64,000 nt of DNA. It comes from Dictyostelium discoideum. Taxonomy: Eukaryota. The number at the start of each line of letters is the position of its first letter. The first letter of the stretch is position 1. The notes beneath the pieces are model-generated. The model made no database searches and was not told the origin of the DNA. It worked only from the letters and a program-made list of their open reading frames with translations. Below, one piece after another: positions 7,068-64,000 of the stretch. The translations under genes were made by a program, and so were the position numbers. The stretch is taken from positions 3,712,001-3,776,000 of the forward strand of contig CM000151.3 in NCBI GenBank assembly GCA_000004695.1, written 5' to 3'.

Positions 7068-7265
7068 CTTTAAAGGATTACAACCAATTCTTGGTACTTC
7101 AACATCTAAAGGTTTCTTTAACCTGTAAAAAGGTTGCTCTGTTTCATTATTATTGATAAATTCTATTTTTGGGAATAATGAATTTAATTCTGATATATTA
7201 TTGCTTTTAGTATAAAATCTGCATTTTGATATAAAATTATTAAAATTTTTTGAAAAAGATATCAT
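7068..7265 (-). CDS. Hypothetical protein, exon 1 (MISFSKNFNNFISKCRF...PRIGCNPLK)
   Basis: ATG at 7265. Donor aag|gtattc (minus). The supplied ORF 6954..7265 reads through the intron as poly-Leu, which is (TAA)n on the plus strand. Confidence 0.5.
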
Positions 7266-7285
7266 TGTTTTTTATTGGGAATGCG

Positions 7286-7365
<80 letters not shown>

Positions 7366-7727
7366 TTGAGATATTTATTATTATGGTAATGTAAAAATGG
7401 TTTTTTTAATTATTAAATTAGTTTCAAAACAATAATTAATTTAAATTAGTTTCAAAACAATGAAGATTCAAAATGGCATCGAAAAATAAAAAAAAAAATA
7501 AAAAGTCAAATTTCACAAAAAAAATGGAAATAAGGTTTCGGTTTTTGTTTTATTATAATAAAAATAGGCCATTTTTTTTTTTTTTTTATGAATTTTATTT
7601 TTTTTTTTTTTTTTTTATTTTTGTTTTTATTTTTATTTTTATTTTTATTTTTATTTTTATTTTTTGTAACTTTTCGACTAAAAATAAAAAAAAATATTAC
7701 TTTGTTGTAAAAAAAAAAAAAAAAAAA

Positions 7728-10936: not shown

Positions 10937-12295
10937 TTAATTATAATAAATTATCTGAATTTTTTTATTATTTAGATTATTATAATTTTTTAATAAATTT
11001 AAAGATTGGAAAGAATTATGAAACATTAATATTTCTATCGAAGATGGTAAATGATTTAAATTGATTTCTTTTGAATATAAAGGACCAAACTTTAAATGAG
11101 TTAAACCATCAGGTAAACAATTTGCATTAATTTGTTGATTGAAAAAGTGACTAAATATAATTGATTTTAAATTTCCATTCTTTGGTAAACTAAATTCATT
11201 CAATGGTTGATTCCATTTTAGTCCAAAATCGATTTCAGTTACTGAACAAGGTATTTGTTCCATTGAGATTTCTCTATTAAATTGCACACCGAATTTAACT
11301 TTTAAAACTGAATTTGGTATAGTTCCAACCATTATCTCATCGTTAAAATATTTATCAAATTTAAATATTTTAATTGAATTTGGATATTTATTAATTTTAT
11401 TATTATTTTTATTATTTACATTATTATTTTTATTATTATATACACTATTACCACCAATTTTTAATTTTTCAACACCATTTGGTATGTATTGAATTGGTTG
11501 ATTATAGGATAAACCAAATGATATTGATTTTAAATTACCAGATAATGGTAAAACACCCAATGATAAAGGACAATTGAAATTTTTACCAAATTTTAGGCAG
11601 GTTAGACTCGGTGGTAATGAATTAATTTGAATATCTTGATTAAATGATTCACCAAATTCCAATGAAGTCAATGATGATGAATTTGGTGAGAATGAATTTT
11701 GATTAATCGCTTGATTAAATGAATAACCAAATGTTATCTTTTTTACAGAGTTTGGGAATATATTATTATTATTATAATTATTATTATTTTTAAAATTAAT
11801 TAATGATAATGGTTCGTCAAAATAAAAACTAAATGTAATATGTTGTAAATATTCTCTATATTGAAAATTAAGTAACGATTTTAAATCATTAAATTCAAAA
11901 CTTGAATAAAGGTTATATAAACGTTGATGAAATAGTATTTCATTCTTTAAGAAAAAGTTTCTCCAAACTTTCCAAAATAATAATTCTTTATAATCAGTAT
12001 TATTTGAATTATAAATTGTAAATTTTGAATCAGACATTGATATAATTTTAATATTTCCAACATTTTCATTTGAAAATGAAATAATTTTATCTTCAATTAA
12101 TTTTTCATTATTTAAATTTAATAATGATGATTCACATGATGACGATGACGATGATGATGATGGTGTTGATGTTAATGTATATGGTGATGAAGATGAAATA
12201 TTTGATTTTTCCATACAATTTAATTTTCTTTTTTTATCACTTCTATTATCAATATTATTATTAATATTATTTGTGTGATTTGAAAAATTAATAAA

Positions 12296-53805: not shown

Positions 53806-54024
53806 ACAGCTGTGTTATTTTTATTTGTGTGCAAATATAAAATTTAATATAAATTTTTGTTTTTGTTTTTTGGACCCCCTTTTTAAAAAGGGGTTAATAT
53901 ATTTTATTGATGTAGTTAATTTATTATCTTTTGAAAACAATAATTTGATATATTAATCGAGAGTGATGGAAGATTATAATCATATCGAGGACAGCCAAAC
54001 GGAGATTTCTATTCAAAAGCATAA

Positions 54025-54083
<59 letters not shown>

Positions 54084-54501
54084 ATTTTGAGTAATTAATG
54101 AGGTTTTTGATAAAAATTCATTTTCTTTATGATTAATCTTTTTGATTGAATGATTTTTTTTATTTTTTTATTTTTTTTTAAATTTATTATTATTTAAATT
54201 TTCTTATCCAGGGATAATTTAATTTGGAATTTTTTTTTTTTGTGATTTTTTTTTTTTATATTTAAAAGACAAACTTGTAATTTAAAGTTACAACTCTTAT
54301 TAATTTTTTAAATAAAGAACAACTTTGAAAAATAATAAATTTAAAAAATAATTTTAAAAAAAGTATAATTAAATAATTCTATTTTTTTTTTTTTTTATTT
54401 TACAAATTAAAAAATTGGGTTTTATTTTTGGTTGGTTTAATATTTTAATTATAATTTAAGTTTGTAATTTTAATTACAACCACAATTGTTTGAACCTCCA
54501 G

Positions 54502-54660
54502 TTAAAATGGAACCGACTCCGTGTAAAACAGAACCAATGATTACACCAGTACCAACAAGAACACCACCAACAAGACCACCAACTCCACCGAGTAATCCTC
54601 CATTTCCACAACCACCACCACATTGAATTGAATTCATTGATTGTAAAGAAGCATCCTCAC
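54502..54660 (-). pseudogene. 5'-truncated second copy of an HssA/2C/7E family gene (...[50 protein letters not shown])
   Basis: The 3' coding region and about 130 bp of 3' flank are near-identical to the 53221..53352 flank of the intact copy. Similarity stops abruptly at 54660, where the complex repeat block begins. No MTIL exon is present. Confidence 0.5.
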
Positions 54661-54664
54661 CCTT

Positions 54665-56654
54665 TTATGATGTTTTTGTATGATTGGATTTTTAAATTTT
54701 AAAGTGAGAAAAAAATTTAGGAACTTCGGACGAAAGTTGAAAATTTTTTTTTTTTTTTTTTTTCCGGCAAAAATGAAAAATATTTAATAAAAAAAAATTG
54801 AGCGAATATAGCCACTTCCACAATATACATATAAAAGAGCTTTATTTTTTGTATTTGTTAATTTTAATTAATATTGAGATATAGTAAATTTTGAGGCTTG
54901 TCAACAACGAGAATCGATGCCTGAATCTGAGGAAAAATAAAAATCTATGGTTTACCGGTGACTCGACCAATGAGTAATGGTAGACGTAGAATTAAATTCT
55001 AAGTTGAAATCACTTGATCCGGTTTATCTACGGGGTCATTAAGGTACCAAAAATTAAAATTACTGAAAAAAAAATTTTAAAAAATTTTCAAAAATTTTTT
55101 TATATGGAGAAATTTTTTTTCGGAAAATCGAAAAAAATTCTGCGCGTAAATCGTCTCGTTAAAATTTAATTCTTTTTGAGTATGTTAATGATCTATCGTG
55201 TATCTAACTTCTGTATTTCGCTTTTTGCACTCAATTTTTTTTTATTAAATATTCAATCGAATCTTTGGCGGGTGGTAAGTGAAAAATCACCATTTTTCCC
55301 AAGTTTTTTTTGGTGTAAGGAGGCTAAGTAAAAAGTCCCTCGTGTTCACTCGACCGACGGTTCCTAGTAAGCTTTCCAGAGCATTTGGGATAATCTGACA
55401 CAAGATCGTATTTTAAAGGGGGGTACTGGACCCCCTAAAAAATTCGCCAAGTTGACACACCAAAAACAGTGTTTTTTCGTGGATTTTTCAAGGAACTTTA
55501 TAGATATTTTAATTAACGAAATTGAGTGAATGTAGACCCATAAAAGTAGCAACTAGACTCAATGAGAGATATTCTGACACATTTTACCAAATAGCTTATG
55601 TGCATATAGTGAATATAAAGACTGGGGACGAAAAGTGAAAATTTTCCAATAAATTCAAAAATTGGTGTATTTTAGCGAAAAATTTAAATGGTGTCGTTCC
55701 TTATCAATCAAAGTTTTTTTAAAAGATAGATATTTTAATTTTACACTTACTGTTACCTCACGGCAGAGTCAACCAAGTAACACAATTTTTTATTTAACTC
55801 GGAAGTTCGTAAAAATATGACATTGGATCCTCATTTACAGATTACAGTGGTTTTATGGTGAGTCGACCGTGAGGTAACTGTAATTAGTTATATTCTTGGC
55901 GATGTTAATGTATTTTTCCGTTTTTGCCTAGGGGGTCACGATCAAAACTTATTAAAATTTTGGCGCCAAAAAATTTTTCATATAAAAAAAAAAAAAATTA
56001 ATGTGAGAAATTTCAATTTGGAGGTTCGAAAAAAATTCGAAAAAAATATGTACTATTTTTTTATTCCAATGATTTTTAGATATAATATAGCTGAAAATGA
56101 GGGCTATCTTTTGTATGTCTTACTTTTTAAATGGCAAGTTAAAAAAAAAATTGGTTTACAAAAAACTTTCTCAAGTACCCCCTATTTTTGGGGGTAAAAA
56201 AGTGCAAAATTTCACTGTAACTTTCATAAATATTACTCCTATTTAGTTCACTCGACCGACGGTTCCTAGTAAGCTTTCCAGATGTACTGACACAGCCTCG
56301 AAACAACGCGCGTAGTCTGGCGGGTCAAATAGACCCCTAAAAAAATTCTGAAAAAATCGCTGTTTTTTGGTGTTTTTTCGTAGGTGATAACTTTTCATTA
56401 AAATAAAAGGAATATTACTCGTAGGATTTAAAAACGTATATGTTTTTAAACATTCTCAAATTTATAGAAAATTTATAGGAAATAGGAACAATTTACTTAT
56501 GAATGATTTTTAAATATAAAAACCCCGATCCATTTTTGAAAAATCGATTTTTTTTAAATTTTTAGCGAAAAATATTTAAATTTTTAAAATGACTTTAAAT
56601 TTGAACCGGACTTTGATTTTTATAGATTACTAGTCATTTGACATCAACACATCA
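54665..56654. repeat. Complex GC-richer non-coding repeat block with internal direct and inverted repeats, abutting the N gap
   Basis: A 37-nt direct repeat gttcactcgaccgacggttcctagtaagctttccaga at 55344 and 56246. The motif cccctaaaaaa(a)ttc follows both copies. A 16-nt inverted repeat tactgttacctcacgg / ccgtgaggtaactgta at 55755 and 55868. No ORF longer than 65 codons. Confidence 0.5.
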
Positions 56655-56754
56655 NNNNNNNNNNNNNNNNNNNNNNNNNNNNNNNNNNNNNNNNNNNNNN
56701 NNNNNNNNNNNNNNNNNNNNNNNNNNNNNNNNNNNNNNNNNNNNNNNNNNNNNN
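56655..56754. other. Assembly gap (100 N)
   Basis: Run of n characters in the sequence. Confidence 0.99.
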
Positions 56755-56885
56755 AAAATTGGGGTGCACCAAAATTTACATCAGCAGAGAGATTTGAAGC
56801 ACAATTTAGTAAAATTAAAGACCTTTTGACAAACAATACAAACAACCAAGATCAACATAAATTTGAAAGAGTAAAAAAAATATTA

Positions 56886-57287
56886 ATGGCAACATTTTTA
56901 GATAATTTTAACAATCTAAAAGAAAAAGATGATGACAATAATGATTTAATTTTAGGGCAAATAATTAAAAAAAATGAAAATATTTATTTAAAAAATAATA
57001 TTTTATCAGACATTAACTTGCATTACAAAAACATTGAAAATATTCAATTTCATAAATCAATTAAAAATTTAAAAGAAATATATAATGTTGGTGATGGAAT
57101 TGAAGTTGCCTCAGAAAATTCATTAACTGGACGATGGAGTGCAATAATTATTGCTATTTGTTTAATAGAATTAAAAAATAAAAAAAGTGCACATTCTATT
57201 TATATACAATACTTTGATAAAGATACAGGTGATCAAAATAATAAGTACCACTTTTTAAGAAAAAGCTTTTCAAGTATAACATATTAA
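56886..57287 (+). CDS. Orphan ORF (133 aa from the first ATG) immediately downstream of the assembly gap
   Basis: Open frame bounded upstream by tga at 56823; coding status and completeness unknown; may be an exon of a gene interrupted by the gap. Confidence 0.3.
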   Translation: MATFLDNFNNLKEKDDDNNDLILGQIIKKNENIYLKNNILSDINLHYKNIENIQFHKSIKNLKEIYNVGDGIEVASENSLTGRWSAIIIAICLIELKNKKSAHSIYIQYFDKDTGDQNNKYHFLRKSFSSITY

Positions 57288-57396
57288 ACACATTAATACC
57301 AATACAAATCGATTCGTCTAACTATCTTATAATTTATAAGTGCCATGACCAATTTTCAATAAGTAAAAAAAAAAAATGAAAAAAATTCGTTGAACT

Positions 57397-57598
57397 CACA
57401 GCGAAGAAAAAACCACCTTTAAATTCGCTTTAAATTAAATTTAAATTTGCTTTAAAGTCCTGAATTAAAGCAATTTTAAAGGTAATTTTAAAGGTAATTT
57501 TTAAGGTTACTTTAAAATTACCTTTAAAATTACCTTTAAAATTACCTTTTTAATCGCTTTAAAAGCGAGGTCCTGAGTTCGAAGCCGTTATTTAACGG
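57397..57598. repeat. Outer terminal inverted repeat, left arm
   Basis: Reverse-complement match to 62690-62902. Rich in the motif aaaggtaatttt. Contains the B-box-like gagttcgaagcc. Confidence 0.7.
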
Positions 57599-57796
57599 AT
57601 AAATTTTTTAAATTTTTTTTTTTAATTTTTCAAAAATTACCAAAAGGGATTCGATCCCCCGACCCTCTATTAAAGGGTAGTCTCATCAACCATTACACCA
57701 TTTGATTGCTTTGATGAAAAATTTAAAAATGATAGAATATTTTATCCCCATTTTTTTGTTCTAAAATTAGATCTTTTTTATTAAAAACCTTTAATT

Positions 57797-58010
57797 TATG
57801 TTTAAAGGAAATTTAAATTCACTTTAAATCTACTTTAAATCCTATTTAAAATTAATTTAAAATAAATTTTAAAGGTATTTTTAAATGTCTTAAAAATTAT
57901 CTTAAATTTACCTTAAAAATCACCTTTAAAATCACCTTTAAAATCACCTTTAAAATTGCTTAAAAATTTATTTTAAAGCAAATTTTAAAGGCATTTTTAA
58001 ATATCTTAAA
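57797..58010. repeat. Inner inverted repeat, left arm ((tttaaaggt/aatttta) periodic motif)
   Basis: Reverse-complement match to 59701-59930 over more than 200 nt with few mismatches. Confidence 0.7.
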
Positions 58011-58259
58011 AATTACCTTAAAAATTACCTTAAAAATGAATTTTTTAAACGCGGCTTTAAATTCAATTTAAATCCAATTTAAATCAACTTTTCTTTAAAT
58101 TTGCTTTAAAGGTGCATTTTTCTTTGCTGTGCTTATTTACATAACTTTTACATTTTTACGTAACTTTTTCTTTTTTTTTTTTCTTTTTTCCAATTTTCTT
58201 TTTTTTCGGTTGGAAATTATAGGATTTTAAAAAAAAATTAAAAAAATATTATAAAAAAA

Positions 58260-58541
58260 ATGACTCACAATAATTCTGCATCATTTGAAACACCAAATAG
58301 AAGTGGTAATTATGTAAATAGATCATCTTTAACTTCACCAACATCACCAATAACACCAATCACATCTCTTATTTTAAATCAAACTGATACCTCCATAGGT
58401 CCACAACGTACTGTTAGAAGACAACAAAGACCTCAAAGACCAAATGCAAGTCATCCACCAACAACAAATATTGTAGAAAAAATATTGGTGTATGAAACAT
58501 TGCACAGAAATTGTGTTTCTCAATACTATGCAACTGGTAAG
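58260..58541 (+). CDS. Gene inside the IR-bounded element, exon 1 (S/T/P-rich N-terminus ...CVSQYYATGK)
   Basis: ATG at 58260; donor aag|gtaaga at 58542. Confidence 0.5.
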
Positions 58542-58549
58542 GTAAGATA

Positions 58550-58594
<45 letters not shown>

Positions 58595-58635
58595 AAGAGA
58601 CTAATTAAATTAAATAAACAAAAATAATACATAAG

Positions 58636-58854
58636 ATTTCCTCTCGTTTTATTAGGACCTGTATATTAAATGCTGGCGGTACAAATTCAAATGAAAATAA
58701 AGTTGTTCTATCCAAATTGGTTAAATGGGTCAACAATAAACGTGGTAACACACGTATTAAAGCCCTAAATACCCTTAGACTTTTAGTTAGAAATAAAGTA
58801 GAACAGTTCAGCGAGTTGCTCTCTCAGGTTCCACCATTAATGGAGTATGAATCG
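58636..58854 (+). CDS. Gene inside the IR-bounded element, exon 2 (ISSRFIRTCILNAGG...KVVLSKLVKWVNNKRGNTRIKALNTLRLLVRNKVEQFSELLSQVPPLMEYES)
   Basis: A phase-0 acceptor cataag| at 58635 is needed for frame continuity; the nearer ttattag| at 58660 is out of phase. Donor tcg|gtatgt at 58855. Codons are GC-richer than the genome norm. Confidence 0.4.
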
Positions 58855-58963
58855 GTATGTAAAAAAAAAAAAAAAATAAAAAATAAAAAAAAAATAAAAA
58901 AAAAAAAAAAAAAAAAATAAATTATTAATAATTTGTTTTTTTAATTTTTTAATTATTATTTAG

Positions 58964-59233
58964 ATAACTCCTTTTGATTTGGCCACTCTTATTATCGATA
59001 CAGTTACCTTAGAAGCTTTTGACTCCGATCCTTTTGTAAAGTTCTTAGTGTCTCAATGCTTTACAATTGAAGAAAAAGAATGGTACAGCGGTTCCAAACC
59101 TCTTATTTCTTTAATAGTTAAAGCATTGCGTGGTGTTTCTCAAAAGTTCATTGACTCTCCTGATGAACTTACTTACACTGAAAAGGTTGCTTTTGAATTC
59201 ACTTCAATACCTCTTTATGCTCCACTAAATTAA
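58964..59233 (+). CDS. Gene inside the IR-bounded element, exon 3 (ITPFDLATLIIDTVTLEAFDSDPFVKFLVSQCF...LYAPLN*); ARM/HEAT-like helical repeats
   Basis: Acceptor tatttag| at 58963, in frame with ORF 58979..59233. Confidence 0.5.
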   Translation: MTPFDLATLIIDTVTLEAFDSDPFVKFLVSQCFTIEEKEWYSGSKPLISLIVKALRGVSQKFIDSPDELTYTEKVAFEFTSIPLYAPLN

Positions 59234-59499
59234 ATCGTTTAAATAAAAAAAATTAATATGATTTCACATACTCAACTTTAATTTTTTCTTTTTTTTTTAA
59301 ATCTTTTTTTAATTTTTATTTTAAATTATTTTTTTTAATTTTTATTTTTAAAGTGATATTATTAATATATCTTATCAAGTTAACTTTATAATATAAATTT
59401 ATAAATGCACTTTTAAATTGAATTTTATAAATATAATTAATAAGAATACTTAATAAGTGTACTTACAAAGAGTACATTATAATTATAATTAGTAATTAC

Positions 59500-59702
59500 G
59501 CTTAATAATTATACTTAATAAGTATATTTAATAAGTATACTTAATAAGTATACTTAATAAGTATATTTAATAAGTATACTTAATAAGTATACTTAATAAG
59601 TATATTTAATAAGTATACTTAATAAGTATACTTAATAAGTATATTTAATAAGTATACTTAATAAGTATACTTAATAAGTATATTTAATAAGTATACTTAA
59701 TA
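59500..59702. repeat. Tandem array of about 16 copies of a 13-nt palindromic unit (TAATAAGTATACT/TAATAAGTATATT) with a 39-nt super-period
   Basis: Directly visible. The unit contains the palindrome AGTATACT. A related palindromic copy lies at 60040-60095. Confidence 0.85.
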
Positions 59703-59930
59703 ATATTTAAAAATGCCTTTAAAATTTGCTTTAAAATAAATTTTTAAGCAATTTTAAAGGTGATTTTAAAGGTGATTTTAAAGGTAATTTTTAAGGTAAT
59801 TTTTAAGATAATTTTTAAGATATTTAAAAATACCTTTAAAATTTATTTTAAATTAATTTTAAATAGGATTTAAAGTAGAATTAAAGTGAATTTAAAGTGA
59901 ATTTAAATTTCCTTTAAACATAAATATTAT
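59701..59930. repeat. Inner inverted repeat, right arm
   Basis: Reverse complement of 57797-58010. Confidence 0.7.
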
Positions 59931-60137
59931 TTTTTTCGTTAAAAAAAAAAAATTCCAAAATTTTTTATTTTTTTTTGTGTTAAAAAAAAATTCCTAAATT
60001 TTTTTTTTTATTGTATTTTTTTTCATCACACCATTATAAATTCTATGTACTTAATAAGTATTACTTATTAAGTATACTTATTAATATATATTAAAAAGAG
60101 TACTTGGATTTAAAGGTGCTTTAAAGTGTTGATTTTC

Positions 60138-62470
60138 GCCGCTGTGTGGATTGGTATCGACTCTACTGATTGTTTGGTCAATACTTCTTGGAATGTTCCC
60201 AGTACTTGAGGAAACATATGACGATGATGACGAGGAACTTGAGCTTGAATCATCGGATACCAAGTTGCTGATCTCCAGATTGGGAAGATCAGTATTATAG
60301 AAACCTTCTTCGAACTGGATGAGTTCATCTTCTCCAGTATAGAAGGCAAAAGAATGGGTGGTGGAAAGGCCAGACATTACTTATATTGACTCCAATCGAG
60401 GTGGAGTGCATTCATTCTGATTGTTGAGTAGTTGTTCGTTTGATGGTTGAGGTGAGATGCGAACAGATCCATCTGTATTTGACCGAATTGAAGTTGCCAG
60501 TTGTAACTCTTGATTACTCTGGTCGATGATATGTGATTCATCTCTGAAAGACGACTGAGGTGGTCGGCTTTTACATTATTCATAATATATATATATATGA
60601 TAATATAAATTAAATTTTTAAATCTTATTCATAATATATATATATATATATATGATAATATAAATTACCAGCCTTATTCTTAATCACAAGCTTGTGTTCG
60701 AGTTTACTTAAAAAATACTACAAATATGTATGTTGTAACTCTTCCACTAAAGAATCCAGCTCTCCACGGTATGCTTGCTGTAGTTCTGCCTCATGAGCCT
60801 GGAGACGTTCCTCAGGAGACAAGCTATGGCTGAACGAATTAGACAGAATAACACCACGAGGGATACCGTAGTGGGATAGGTTAGATGCCTTCATAACAAA
60901 CCAGAAGTTTAACAGCCAACTCACTACCATGTCATTGTTAGAGACTCAAAACTAAATTAATTTAAAGTTAGTTTGAGCTCAACAACATAACAAATTCGCG
61001 CATCTCCATGTAAAAATATTTCATTTAATTTTTGTTTTTTATTTTTTATTTTTTCAGTCAAAAAATAAAATTAAAAAAATTAAATAAAATTAAAATTTAA
61101 AAAAATAATAAAAATTCTGATTTTCGGTTTAGTTAGATAACGCCCTTACATTCAATTATCTGTTTTATGTATGTTTACTTTTATGATGTTAGTCTTTCAC
61201 TCTTTCTATCCTTCATATGGAATGACATTAGATTAAAGATTGGACTAGTTCGGTTAAAGATTGAACAAATGTGACAATGGATTGAAGATTAGTGTGAGAA
61301 ACTTTTACAGTCATCGTATCCAGACGCCTTGTGGTCAATACGACCATTCTTAACAACCAGACTGGTGATCTCATTAATCAGCGTTTTATCGTGAGTAACA
61401 CGACCAGCGCGTTTAGCCGCTTCAGGTAGGACTTCACCGTACAGTGTCAACGCGATTCGGCTGTAGTAACGAACCCAAACTTGTTACGCACGTCATCGTA
61501 GAAATAACTACCACGAGGACGCAGTGGATTGTTAACCATAGCAGCTGCATTTTTATCCACCTTCACCTCTTCAACAATCCAGTTAAAAATATGTTTGAAT
61601 GGATCAATACCTTGTAACGGCGAATTTAATCAGGTTAGTTTCATTACAACCCCCTGCATCTACTGTAACCATATCACGAATGTAAGTAAACACTAAACCA
61701 ATGGCATCTCTACCGATCGCTTCCGAGGGATCCATCCCTAGTAGAATGTGTGCCCCTTCGTTAATTTCTCATGTCGATCTTTTGGTATGTGTCAGCCGAT
61801 ACTGTAACCGTCTTTGGAACTCAGTCCACAGTGGGTCACGTTCATAGTCACGGATAATGTTGTTTAGCTCAGTTGACAGAGGTGAACGTAAAGAACCTGA
61901 TGTCCAGCGGTTAAAGAAGTCACGGTCTGCTTCTTTAATTTTAACACCGGAGTTCTGCAATGCGTCACGCAGCCATTCTTTATCCAAACCAAGCTGACGA
62001 TAACTCCACGTCCCGTTAATCATAATAAGCGCACCTTTCTTACCGATGAGTTTGATTAATACGGTACGTAGTTCTTCCTGGTTTCTCAGGTCTATGATGG
62101 TCTTTAACCCAAAGATAAGACGGCAGTAGATCGCGAATCTCTTTTAATCGGTCGAAGTTAGACCGTCAGTAGTGCGTCATCCTTCGTAATCAGGTTAATG
62201 CTGATGGTATCTGACGAACCAGACTTACCGGTCTGACGGGGATTAACATGTAGTCGATGTGGTTATAGAAGCTCCAGATCAAACTCAGGTTAGCACGGTT
62301 TGCTTTAAAAGGACGCGGCGTTGCACCCGCAGAGAATCTAACGACCTCACGATAGTAATACCATGGGTTGAATCGACATTCGATAGCGAATTAATTTCTT
62401 ATGACAGATCGGTGGCAAATGGATCCACTGACTTAATTCCTGTTGAAGGAGACTAAGCATGAATGTACAG
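60138..62470 (-). mobile_element. GC-richer (about 45-50% GC) exon-like blocks of a degenerate integrase/RNase-H-like gene, possibly a transposase, interrupted by AT-rich intron-like spacers
   Basis: Minus-strand open frames at 62023-61769, 61610-61300, 60930-60718, 60583-60377 and 60377-60081 sit in different phases. Motifs NNVKADHLSR (like N..ADALSR at the RNase H/integrase junction) and IDHKASGYDD (like RT/IN D.K.SGY). A GTAAAAG donor-like site falls exactly at the GC-to-AT transition at 61300. An AT-rich spacer spans 60940-61300. Confidence 0.4.
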
Positions 62471-62689
62471 TTCTCAACACCCATTTCTTTATAAAGATTT
62501 AGAAATTCAAGTTAATCAAATAATATTAATATTGTATTTGTATTCAAAGTGAAAAACTAAATTTTTCGAAAAACGAAAAACTTCGTAAAGTATCAAAATA
62601 CTTTACAAAAATTCAAAAAAAAATTCAAAAAAAAATTCAAAAAAAAATTCAAAAAAAAATTCAAAAAAAAAAAATTTAAAAAAATTTAT

Positions 62690-62902
62690 CCGTTAAATAA
62701 CGGCTTCGAACTCCGGACCTCGCTTTTAAAGGATTAAAAAGCTAATTTTTAAGGTAATTTTAAAGGTATTTTTTAAGGTGATTTTAAAGTAAACTTAAAA
62801 ATTACCTTTAAAATTACCTTAAAAATTGCTTTAATTCAGGACTTTAAATTCGCTTTAAATTAAATTTAAATTTGCTTTAAAGGAGGATTTTTCTTCGCTG
62901 TG
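62690..62902. repeat. Outer terminal inverted repeat, right arm
   Basis: Reverse complement of 57397-57598. Confidence 0.7.
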
Positions 62903-62939
62903 GAATAAGCTGAGTTATTTCGAAAAAAGTTTATTTTTT

Positions 62940-63990
62940 TTTGACAAATTTTGCATGTTTTTTTTTTTTTTTTTTAATAAAACACATTATTTAAAACAAA
63001 AATTTTAAATAATATAAAACAATATTTGTTAAGACCTATCGTAGAATTAAATTTGGTTGTATTTATGGAGAAATAAAGAAAATATAAAAAAAAATGAACT
63101 TCGAAAAAAAAAAAAGGAACTTCAAAAAAAAAAAACTACATAAAATTTTTGTTTTAAATAATGGGGGACCTATCAGTGAATAATTGAATTAATTTTGAAA
63201 AAAAAAAGTTATTTTGAAAAAGATCGAGTTATCCCGGAAAAGATCAATCTTTTCGCGAAAAATTTTTCATTGGCCATATTATTTTTTTTTTTTTTAATTT
63301 TTTTCATTTATTCACAATTAAAATAAAAAATATAATAAATAAATAAATAAATAAAATAAATAGTATGATTGACAAAAAAAAATCAAAAATACCAGGGCTC
63401 AAATAAAGGATTTATTTTTTATATGTAGTTTTTTTTTTTTAAGTTCCTTTTTTTTTTCGAAATTCATTTTTTTTTATATTTTTTTTATTTCTCTATAAAT
63501 ACAACCAAATTTAATTCTACGACAGTCTTTACAAATATTGTTTTATATTATTTAAAATTTTTGTTTTAAATAATGTGTTTTATTAAAAAAAAAAAAAAAA
63601 AAAACATATGAAAAGTGAAAAATTTTTCAAAAAAAAATAAACTTTTTTCGAAATAACTCAATTTATTCCGGGATAACTCGATCTTTTTCAAAATAACTTT
63701 ATTTATTCAGAATTAATTCAATTATCCACTGATAGGTCCATTATTTAAAATTTTTGTTTTAAATAATGTGTTTTATTAAAAAAAAAAAAAAAAAAACATA
63801 TAAAATTTGAAAAAATTTCGAAAAAAAAAACTTTTTTTGAAATAAATGAATTTATTCTGAGATAACTCGATCTTTTTTAAAATATGCTGAGTTAATTATA
63901 ACAGAAATTTTTACTTTATTTTTTATTTTTTATTTTTTATTTTATTGACTAAATTATTTTTAAAAAAACAATTACAGATAATATTGAAGC
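62940..63990. repeat. Cluster of inverted and direct repeats at the window end (unit ...ttaataaaacacattatttaaaacaaaaattttaaataatataaaacaatatttgt...)
   Basis: 62960-63130 is the reverse complement of 63455-63595. A further partial copy lies at 63720-63790. Interspersed motifs ataactcgatc and ttcgaaa. Confidence 0.6.
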
Positions 63991-64000
63991 AGGTGAAATA

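Follow-up and report, generated by a model that had tools for sequence, protein, structure and literature searches.

Some DNA transposons depend on a small second protein beside the transposase. En/Spm elements make a transposase, TnpD, and an accessory protein, TnpA, as alternative splice products of one transcript, while PIF/Harbinger elements need a small Myb-like protein to bring the transposase to subterminal sites; in both, the best-studied of the two-protein cut-and-paste systems, the smaller partner attaches to subterminal repeats (12-bp motifs in the case of TnpA) and serves to recruit or bridge the transposase. Mirage elements have been reported to make a 2-bp target duplication. For Dictyostelium discoideum, Glockner et al. 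reportedly described three 'putative DNA transposons', DDT-A, DDT-B and DDT-S, in 2001. The transposases of Dictyostelium DNA transposons have been said to resemble no known ones (PMC5633606). Here we consider a three-exon gene, DDB_G0274765, at positions 58260-59233 of a 64,000-nucleotide stretch of D. discoideum chromosome 2 (GenBank assembly GCA_000004695.1, contig CM000151.3, 3,712,001 to 3,776,000, forward strand), hereafter the window, to which all positions refer unless another locus is named. Taken as a whole, the evidence makes it likely that this gene is the conserved second open reading frame (ORF2) of an autonomous, multi-copy cut-and-paste DNA transposon of D. discoideum, which we call X.

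The region around ORF2 is extremely AT-rich Dictyostelium DNA with three plus-strand ORF pieces, and the three-exon gene proposed in an earlier sequence-only reading is indeed there, with the peptides quoted for it. Exon 1 (58260-58541, +; 94 codons) encodes a disordered, basic N-terminus rich in S, T, P, N and Q with a conserved QRxVxRRxxRPxxP motif; exon 2 (58636-58854, +; 73 codons) encodes a helical region of basic character in which the motifs AGG and LxKWVNNKxxN are invariant; and exon 3 (58964-59233, +; 89 codons and the stop) encodes an acidic helical C-terminal part (isoelectric point, pI, 4.25) with EEKxWY..S.PL and PLY motifs. The introns are of the classic AT-rich GT..AG kind, as had been described: intron 1 (58542-58635, +) has 94 nt at 9.6% GC and reads GTAAGA...ATAAG, its position being kept in the sister family introduced below, and intron 2 (58855-58963, +) has 109 nt at 3.7% GC and reads GTATGT...TTTAG. 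Conceptual splicing joins the three exons into an open coding sequence of 771 nt and 256 amino acids, not the 258 first given, and a database comparison finds the product identical at 256 of 256 residues to the annotated DDB_G0274765 (XP_643869.1, Q556E1; D. discoideum AX4, labelled 'hypothetical protein'). Because the spliced product is identical over all 256 residues, the public model uses exactly these junctions. The acceptor of exon 2, cataag directly before ATTTCC, had been considered doubtful, and it proves to be right: the aligned site in three diverged copies (L004, L005 and L006) is a canonical TTTTAG or ATTTAG, and the sister family has an intron at the codon homologous to intron 1 (YYADGN/VSP vs YYATGK/ISS, the slash marking the intron). 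Alternative splicing with a donor at 58536 or an acceptor at 58655, checked by hand, was rejected, as it breaks the frame. Compared with most copies, the window protein has two replacements of its own, P35T and A161P.

The public entry at dictyBase and NCBI, a plain 'hypothetical protein' with no transposable element (TE) flag, would suit an ordinary host gene, present once and placed between repeats by chance, or even a spurious gene model. The AX4 genome, however, holds four annotated 256-residue paralogs, DDB_G0267230, DDB_G0267252, DDB_G0277819 and the window's DDB_G0274765, which differ from the window protein at no more than 3 of 256 residues, many copies and fragments are found in five other assemblies, and several newly sequenced strains each have several full-length and many truncated copies. 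A count of copies thus bears out a multi-copy ORF rather than a single-copy orthologue at a non-repeat locus, the finding that would have spoken for a host gene. A single-copy host gene is ruled out because ORF2 is multi-copy in each genome, and its copies are always embedded in X. A spurious model is equally hard to square with reading frames and splice sites that stay unchanged across X copies while intron lengths vary from 64 to 112 nt, or with a ratio of nonsynonymous to synonymous substitution (dN/dS) well below 1, and we give practically no credence to either. All ORF2 matches are confined to D. discoideum and 'D. cf. discoideum'.

Seven loci carrying ORF2 (L001-L007, where L001 is a long-read assembly of the window locus) were compared together with their surroundings. 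In five of them (L002, L004, L005, L006 and L007) a gene of 575-818 amino acids, ORF1, lies directly upstream of ORF2 on the same strand, and in L002 the distance from the end of ORF1 to the ORF2 start codon is 144 bp. The window segments 56755-57396 and 58132-59703 are contiguous in six independent copies (L002-L007; BLAST), and the X copies are mutually collinear over ~4.3-4.9 kb. A complete X occupies L002 2067-7628 (5,562 bp) and is bounded by ~38-bp terminal inverted repeats (TIRs) that start with CACAG; it interrupts a Skipper-like retroelement, and comparison with the paralogous site in L004, which is empty at 11810/11811, gives a target-site duplication (TSD) of 2 bp, 'CA'. The termini in L002 read CACAGCGTCGAAAATCAACACTTTAAAG... 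and ...CTTTAAAGATGC..TTTTCGCCCCTGTG, and their CAC... motif (CACAGCGTCGAAAA... / ...TTTTCGCCCCTGTG, at L002 2067 and 7628) is common to X, to the sister family and to a short element, Y, that is inserted in the window. Both ends of X hold arrays of a 13-bp unit, ATAAGTATACTTA, that contains a perfect 12-bp palindrome, TAAGTATACTTA; in L002 the left array (2125-2294) has 12.9 copies and the right array (7176-7569) has 30.3. The suggestion that the gene is the second ORF of a mobile element is borne out by these comparisons: it is multi-copy, always follows a transposase-like ORF1 of ~816 amino acids in full-length copies, and is conserved in the sister family.

Immediately interior to the 13-bp array at the left end of X, L002 2321-2464 (X ~255-398) holds 2.6 tandem copies of a 53-bp unit with GGGAATTGAACCC, which is a tRNA-gene B-box in reverse. 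These repeats may account for the reported integration of TRE5-A upstream of an 'A/B-box' in DDT-B (PMC9012585).

The sister family places ORF2 in a second, diverged transposon lineage. Its ORF1 (P0045 and relatives) is ~48-50% identical to that of X, and directly downstream, in the same place as ORF2, lies a gene of 276 (L008) or 280 (L009) amino acids, for which a single GT..AG splicing solution reproduces the annotated lengths. This protein is 31-35% identical to ORF2, both intron positions correspond, and the blocks YE.L...C..QYY..G, AGG, L.KWVNNK..N, E..D.F.K..V..C...EEK.WY..S.PL, F.F and PLY are invariant in both families. The sister element has CACAGC... termini and subterminal arrays built of a different 12/24-bp unit. 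Between sublineages of X, dN/dS of ORF2 is 0.19-0.32 at dS of 0.19-0.32; judged from these ratios, ORF2 is a transposon gene kept under purifying selection.

CACTA-type elements are known to capture pieces of host genes, and ORF2 might be such a transduplicate, a passenger with no role in transposition. Its introns are of host type, and its codon usage lies at the upper end of the host range. The sequence-only reading had gone further and called the codon usage non-host-like. GC content is 0.344 overall and 0.211 at third codon positions (GC3), against a pooled GC3 of 0.115 (range 0.081-0.208) for fifteen long ORFs of the window and a host-like 0.145 for ORF1 of X; the raised GC3 lends that claim weak support, and the foreign label falls away, with ORF2 standing at the top of the host range. 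The codons enriched in ORF2 (TCT, TCC, CTT, CGT and ACC) fit those that Sharp and Devine reportedly listed in 1989 as preferred in highly expressed D. discoideum genes. Against capture, no ORF2 homologue was found outside transposon copies among 5.8 billion proteins, a profile search included, and the gene keeps its position and its intron positions in two families that have diverged to 31-35% identity, with purifying selection acting across element sublineages. We therefore consider a captured host gene very improbable.

ORF1 of X encodes 816 amino acids with an N-terminal C2H2-type zinc finger (C-x2-C-x12-H-x3-H) and a DDE domain. An exhaustive HMMER search with a profile of nine ORF1 sequences (A2) returned, beyond Dictyostelium, ~20 distant matches with E = 1e-7 to 1e-3 over positions ~380-705, mostly 440-705. 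In Pfam several of these are Transposase_21, 'transposase family tnp2' (two of them above the cut-off, with 42.3 and 39.1 bits vs 28.6), while others match DUF4218 or DUF1258; one distant relative sits on a marine metagenome contig (L011) that ends at the gene. Alignment of A2 by hhalign with a profile of eight of the distant matches gave a probability of 98.3% and E = 1.6e-14 over 403 columns, pairing FSDGMS with NTDG, PDILHNILLG with ExLHxIYLGV, and NFHLLLHY..NWGAPKYTSAERFE with NIHLLLH..VRNWGPLWxxSxFxFE, so that the D, D/E-xx-H and E motifs are aligned. Profiles of ORF1 and ORF2 found no relative among PDB sequences. By profile comparison, then, ORF1 is a putative transposase that is remotely but significantly related to the CACTA/Mirage/Chapaev (CMC) transposases (Tnp2 / Transposase_21 / DUF4218). 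X combines four features of CMC elements, a Tnp2-family DDE transposase, CAC... TIRs, a TSD in the 2-4 bp range and subterminal repeats at both ends, and because of this combination we place it in or next to that superfamily.

The window holds a relic of X that is truncated at its 5′ end, has a premature stop in ORF1 and lacks the right terminus, and in which ORF2 is intact. In L001 this copy begins at L002 coordinate 4991 (X ~2,925). The C-terminal fragment of ORF1 (56757-57287, +) starts right after a 100-N assembly gap, reads KNWGAPKFTSAERFEAQFSKIKD... and includes the ...NWGAPKFTSAERFEAQ... motif with the predicted catalytic E; it is 97-98% identical to the 3′ end of ORF1 in L002 and L007 (5222-5873). 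At the other end, the right subterminal array (59427-59703) has 21.3 copies of ATAAGTATACTTA; homology to other X copies stops here, and the right TIR is absent. The part of the ORF1-ORF2 spacer that adjoins ORF2 (58132-58259, +; 144 bp for the whole spacer) has long T runs and is collinear with L002 5872-6000. T runs preceding transcription start sites have been described in D. discoideum (PMC6161686), and the promoter and 5′ untranslated region of ORF2 itself presumably lie within 58132-58259.

Y (57397-58131, +; 735 bp) interrupts this spacer 16 bp past the position at which ORF1 stops in intact copies and 128 bp before the start of ORF2. It ends in CACAGCGAAGAAAA ... TTTTCTTTGCTGTG, contains 12-bp AATTTTAAAGGT units and is made up largely of 11-12-bp units of the TTTAAAGG type in both orientations. 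We regard Y as a separate inserted element because it is absent from all other X copies and has CT on both sides (57395-96 and 58132-33); at the corresponding position of L002-L007 the flanks are contiguous, and the uninterrupted sequence in L002 and L007 reads ...cgttgaaCTtatttac.... The target duplications rest on two insertion events, that of X in L002 ('CA') and that of Y in the window ('CT'). An alignment of TIRs shows them to be common to X, Y and the sister family, the termini of Y being closest to those of the sister family, and on sequence grounds Y is a non-autonomous relative of X. Further Y copies lie immediately upstream in L001 (L001 1351-4133), and Y-type sequence also occurs at window 62655-62902. 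A near-perfect hairpin of Y at 57468-57547 recurs at 62748-62835. An Rfam scan of 54000-64000 gave only sub-threshold matches to microRNA (miRNA) families, on AT-rich hairpins inside Y, and no tRNA was called by ARAGORN, despite tRNA-like B-box pieces in Y at ~57560-57700.

The gene had been described as lying between inner inverted repeats at 57797-58010 and 59701-59930, which were taken as part of its element. The geometry holds, with arms at 57790-58001 and 59707-59918 that are 75% complementary ungapped and 93% by gapped BLAST. These repeats are not the ends of the gene's own element: the left one lies wholly in Y, and the right one belongs to an inverted internal Y-type fragment with no terminus (59703-59945, -), which begins exactly where X homology ends and shares 93-96% identity with the interior of four Y copies in L001 and of one in L007 and, inverted, with window 57794-58004. 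Likewise, the outer repeats at 57378-57623 and 62665-62921 correspond to the left end of Y and to an end of a different Y-type copy. They do not delimit a composite element running from 57397 to 62902, a reading that was rejected because the dinucleotides next to these termini differ (CT vs GA). Further downstream, ~100 bp of an inverted X-type left terminus (60040-60146, -), with 13-bp units and a TIR ending ...CGCCGCTGTG at 60146, is near-identical to the reverse complement of the left end of X in L002 and abuts a DIRS-1-like fragment. The 100-N gap itself spans 56655-56754; upstream of this point L001 has three Y-type copies in alternating orientation, followed by the truncated X, and the window sequence on the far side of the gap (55000-56654) is 99.9% identical to an unrelated place, L007 8922-10574. 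By this comparison, the assembly may have joined sequences across the gap that are not adjacent in the genome.

What ORF2 does must be judged from the protein and from the ends of X. Residues 1-160 are basic (pI 10-12), with the QRxVxRRxxRPxxP stretch and the KWVNNK helix, and residues 161-256 are acidic (pI 4.25). In the predicted models an all-helical domain consistently follows an N-terminal third that is disordered; in the sister-type protein the helical core (residues ~90-150 and 190-240) has a predicted local distance difference test (pLDDT) score of 78-93 in most of its length, in one of five models. The ARM/HEAT-like repeats that had been read into the sequence find no support: the only Pfam match of ORF2 (hmmscan, E <= 1) is HEAT_EF3_N at E = 0.12 and 12.8 bits, below the cut-off of 32, the predicted models show no solenoid of paired helices, and searches with predicted structures found no relatives in the fold libraries used. 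By analogy with En/Spm and PIF/Harbinger, we tentatively propose, with rather less than even confidence, that ORF2 could be an accessory transposition factor, comparable to TnpA or to the Myb-like protein, that attaches to the palindromic arrays and works together with ORF1. DNA binding at the subterminal arrays would fall to the basic N-terminal half; the acidic helical C-terminal part would interact with the transposase and assist in bringing the two ends together. Expression would be driven by a T-rich promoter that ORF2 has to itself, within the 144 bp between ORF1 and ORF2. An extended version of this proposal, which we put forward still more guardedly and think somewhat unlikely as a whole, is that ORF2 represents a new lineage-specific accessory family that recognises TAAGTATACTTA and, alongside the CMC-type transposase, is required for movement of the short Y as well as of the 5.5-kb elements, and that intact copies in dead elements supply or titrate its activity in trans. 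If true, this reading of ORF2 would offer a first mechanistic handle on Dictyostelium DNA transposition.

Several points weigh against the picture of a CMC-like transposon with an end-binding second protein. The zinc finger at the N-terminus of ORF1 might let the transposase bind the ends unaided, and ORF1 has no direct transposase match in Pfam, which agrees with the published statement on Dictyostelium transposases quoted above; the superfamily link runs through intermediate sequences and one profile-profile alignment. AlphaFold models of the window-type ORF2 have a mean pLDDT of 43.6 and are unusable, and those of the sister type reach 60.1, with one good model in five. All loci were picked through intact ORF2 proteins, so that how often ORF2 survives relative to ORF1 is not to be inferred from them.

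Some of the same observations would suit the main alternative, a regulator that acts in trans from intact copies in dead elements either as a dose-dependent inhibitor of transposition or as an anti-silencing factor directed at host RNA interference or chromatin. In the window ORF2 is intact though the transposase is truncated, Pfam and fold searches detect no DNA-binding domain in it, and the transposase has a zinc finger of its own. Of 28 genes with raised expression in dnmA-knockout cells (PMC12405889 Table 2), one is the paralog DDB_G0267252, which has no product name there and stands in one set with TRE3-B, TRE5-A, Tdd-4, thugS and Skipper (PMC12405889); a copy of ORF2 is thus transcribed and rises with other transposons upon dnmA deletion, although the reads may multi-map among the near-identical paralogs. 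No direct evidence speaks for regulation, a DNA-binding partner would account at least equally well for the basic N-terminal half and for the palindromes in both terminal arrays, and the sampling of loci was biased towards intact ORF2. A regulatory role is in our view unlikely, and an accessory factor remains the reading that we carry forward.

The surroundings of the locus hold further repeats and one probable insertion of another kind. DIRS-1-like retroelement fragments occupy 60147-60930 (-), with one ORF that includes ...NVKADHLSRL...; the part at 60147-60577 is 85% identical to an L006 gene with RVT_1 and Phage_integrase domains, and the fragments are broken by (AT)n-rich duplicated 50-bp pieces at 60585-60689. 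Further along, 61310-62511 (-) has a GC content of 0.42-0.46 and no ORF longer than 84 amino acids, and is a frameshifted homologue of a 706-residue jumbo-phage protein of Erwinia phage pEa_SNUABM_54 (76% nucleotide identity, E = 1e-91; tblastn segments of 33-74% amino acid identity, the best three 65-74%). Genes labelled 'terminase large subunit' in Pseudomonas phage Noxifer and in Klebsiella jumbo phages match it as well, and it has no match in E. coli. The independent long-read assembly L001 contains the stretch at 99.75% identity, and because of this and of the Dictyostelium repeats on its flanks it appears to be a phage gene that entered chromosome 2 and decayed into a pseudogene, rather than contamination. 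Directly adjoining it, 61232-61253 (-) matches miRNA-like_D4 at 21 of 22 positions. This non-hairpin small RNA rises strongly in agnA- cells (PMC4894637). Its listed sites are chromosome 2 3773232-3773252 (minus strand), which puts the window at roughly 3.712-3.776 Mb of that chromosome, and three places near the starts of chromosomes 3, 4 and 6, at a distance of a few kb (PMC4894637 S4 table).

Downstream of the cluster lie very AT-rich inverted repeats (62958-63113 / 63448-63603 and 63166-63266 / 63639-63739), among them one of 78 nt with 99% complementarity and a separation of 489 nt, which may be another small TIR element. On the far side of the assembly gap, a perfect 37-bp direct repeat, GTTCACTCGACCGACGGTTCCTAGTAAGCTTTCCAGA, occurs at 55344-55380 and 56246-56282, 902 bp apart, inside a repeat with a GC content of 0.27-0.38.

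That DDB_G0274765 is an annotated gene, and that the element class has been described since 2001, is already known; the recognition of ORF2 copies as transposon genes, the CMC link, and the base-exact insertion of Y with the target duplications appear to be new. On our reading, DDB_G0274765, DDB_G0267230, DDB_G0267252 and DDB_G0277819, listed as ordinary hypothetical host genes, are actually transposon ORF2 copies, as are the sister-family fragments DDB_G0267354 and DDB_G0294266, which are likewise listed as host genes. Reannotation would affect gene counts and the interpretation of expression studies, for example that of dnmA-knockout cells, in which DDB_G0267252 stands unnamed beside flagged transposons. 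One D. discoideum DNA-transposon family is tied to CMC by its transposase profile, termini, target duplication and subterminal arrays, and, for a short non-autonomous partner, the insertion junctions are fixed exactly; the biology is otherwise that of ordinary transposons.

Among the described elements of D. discoideum, X resembles thug-S in being a multi-copy DNA transposon with an intron-containing gene (PMC4894637). An identification with thug-S was rejected, its published multi-copy intronic miRNA, miRNA_can_D3 (UAUGGCUGCUGAAAUUAAUGUGG), being absent from the window at up to 3 mismatches and also from L001-L009. X was also rejected as a member of the Tdd-4/Tdd-5 group (Ginger, integrase-like), ORF1 having no rve match and linking instead to the Tnp2 family. 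The DDT elements come closest. The DDT-B consensus is 5,471 bp long, and its A/B-box, contained in a rearranged fragment covering nt 428-1, apparently sits close to the left end (PMC9012585); X, with 5,562 bp and B-box-like repeats at ~255-398, is consistent with DDT-B without being specific to it, and differs in that its ORF2 copies carry no TE-gene flag in the public annotation. By size and box motif, X, the sister family and Y are probably DDT-A, DDT-B and DDT-S, with X being DDT-A or DDT-B.

Beyond Dictyostelium, the likeness to PIF/Harbinger is one of functional analogy only, in that the two proteins come from two separate genes; the transposase belongs to another superfamily, PIF/Harbinger elements have a 3-bp TSD (TAA/TTA), and ORF2 has no Myb/SANT signature in Pfam. 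Compared with En/Spm, ORF2 shows no similarity to Transposase_24, TNP1 or any Pfam accessory family (hmmscan, E <= 1), which sets it apart from TnpA, and it looks like a separate gene behind a 144-bp spacer rather than an alternative splice product. X further differs from CACTA elements in its termini, which read CACAG and not CACTA, and in an ORF1 too diverged for a direct match to Pfam Transposase_21. The 2-bp target duplication of X and Y is like that of Mirage. In its overall plan, X is most like CACTA/En-Spm (CMC) elements: a DDE transposase related to Tnp2, Transposase_21 and DUF4218, CAC... termini, 12-13-bp subterminal arrays at both ends, a second protein encoded downstream of the transposase, and a non-autonomous derivative, Y, that shares its termini.

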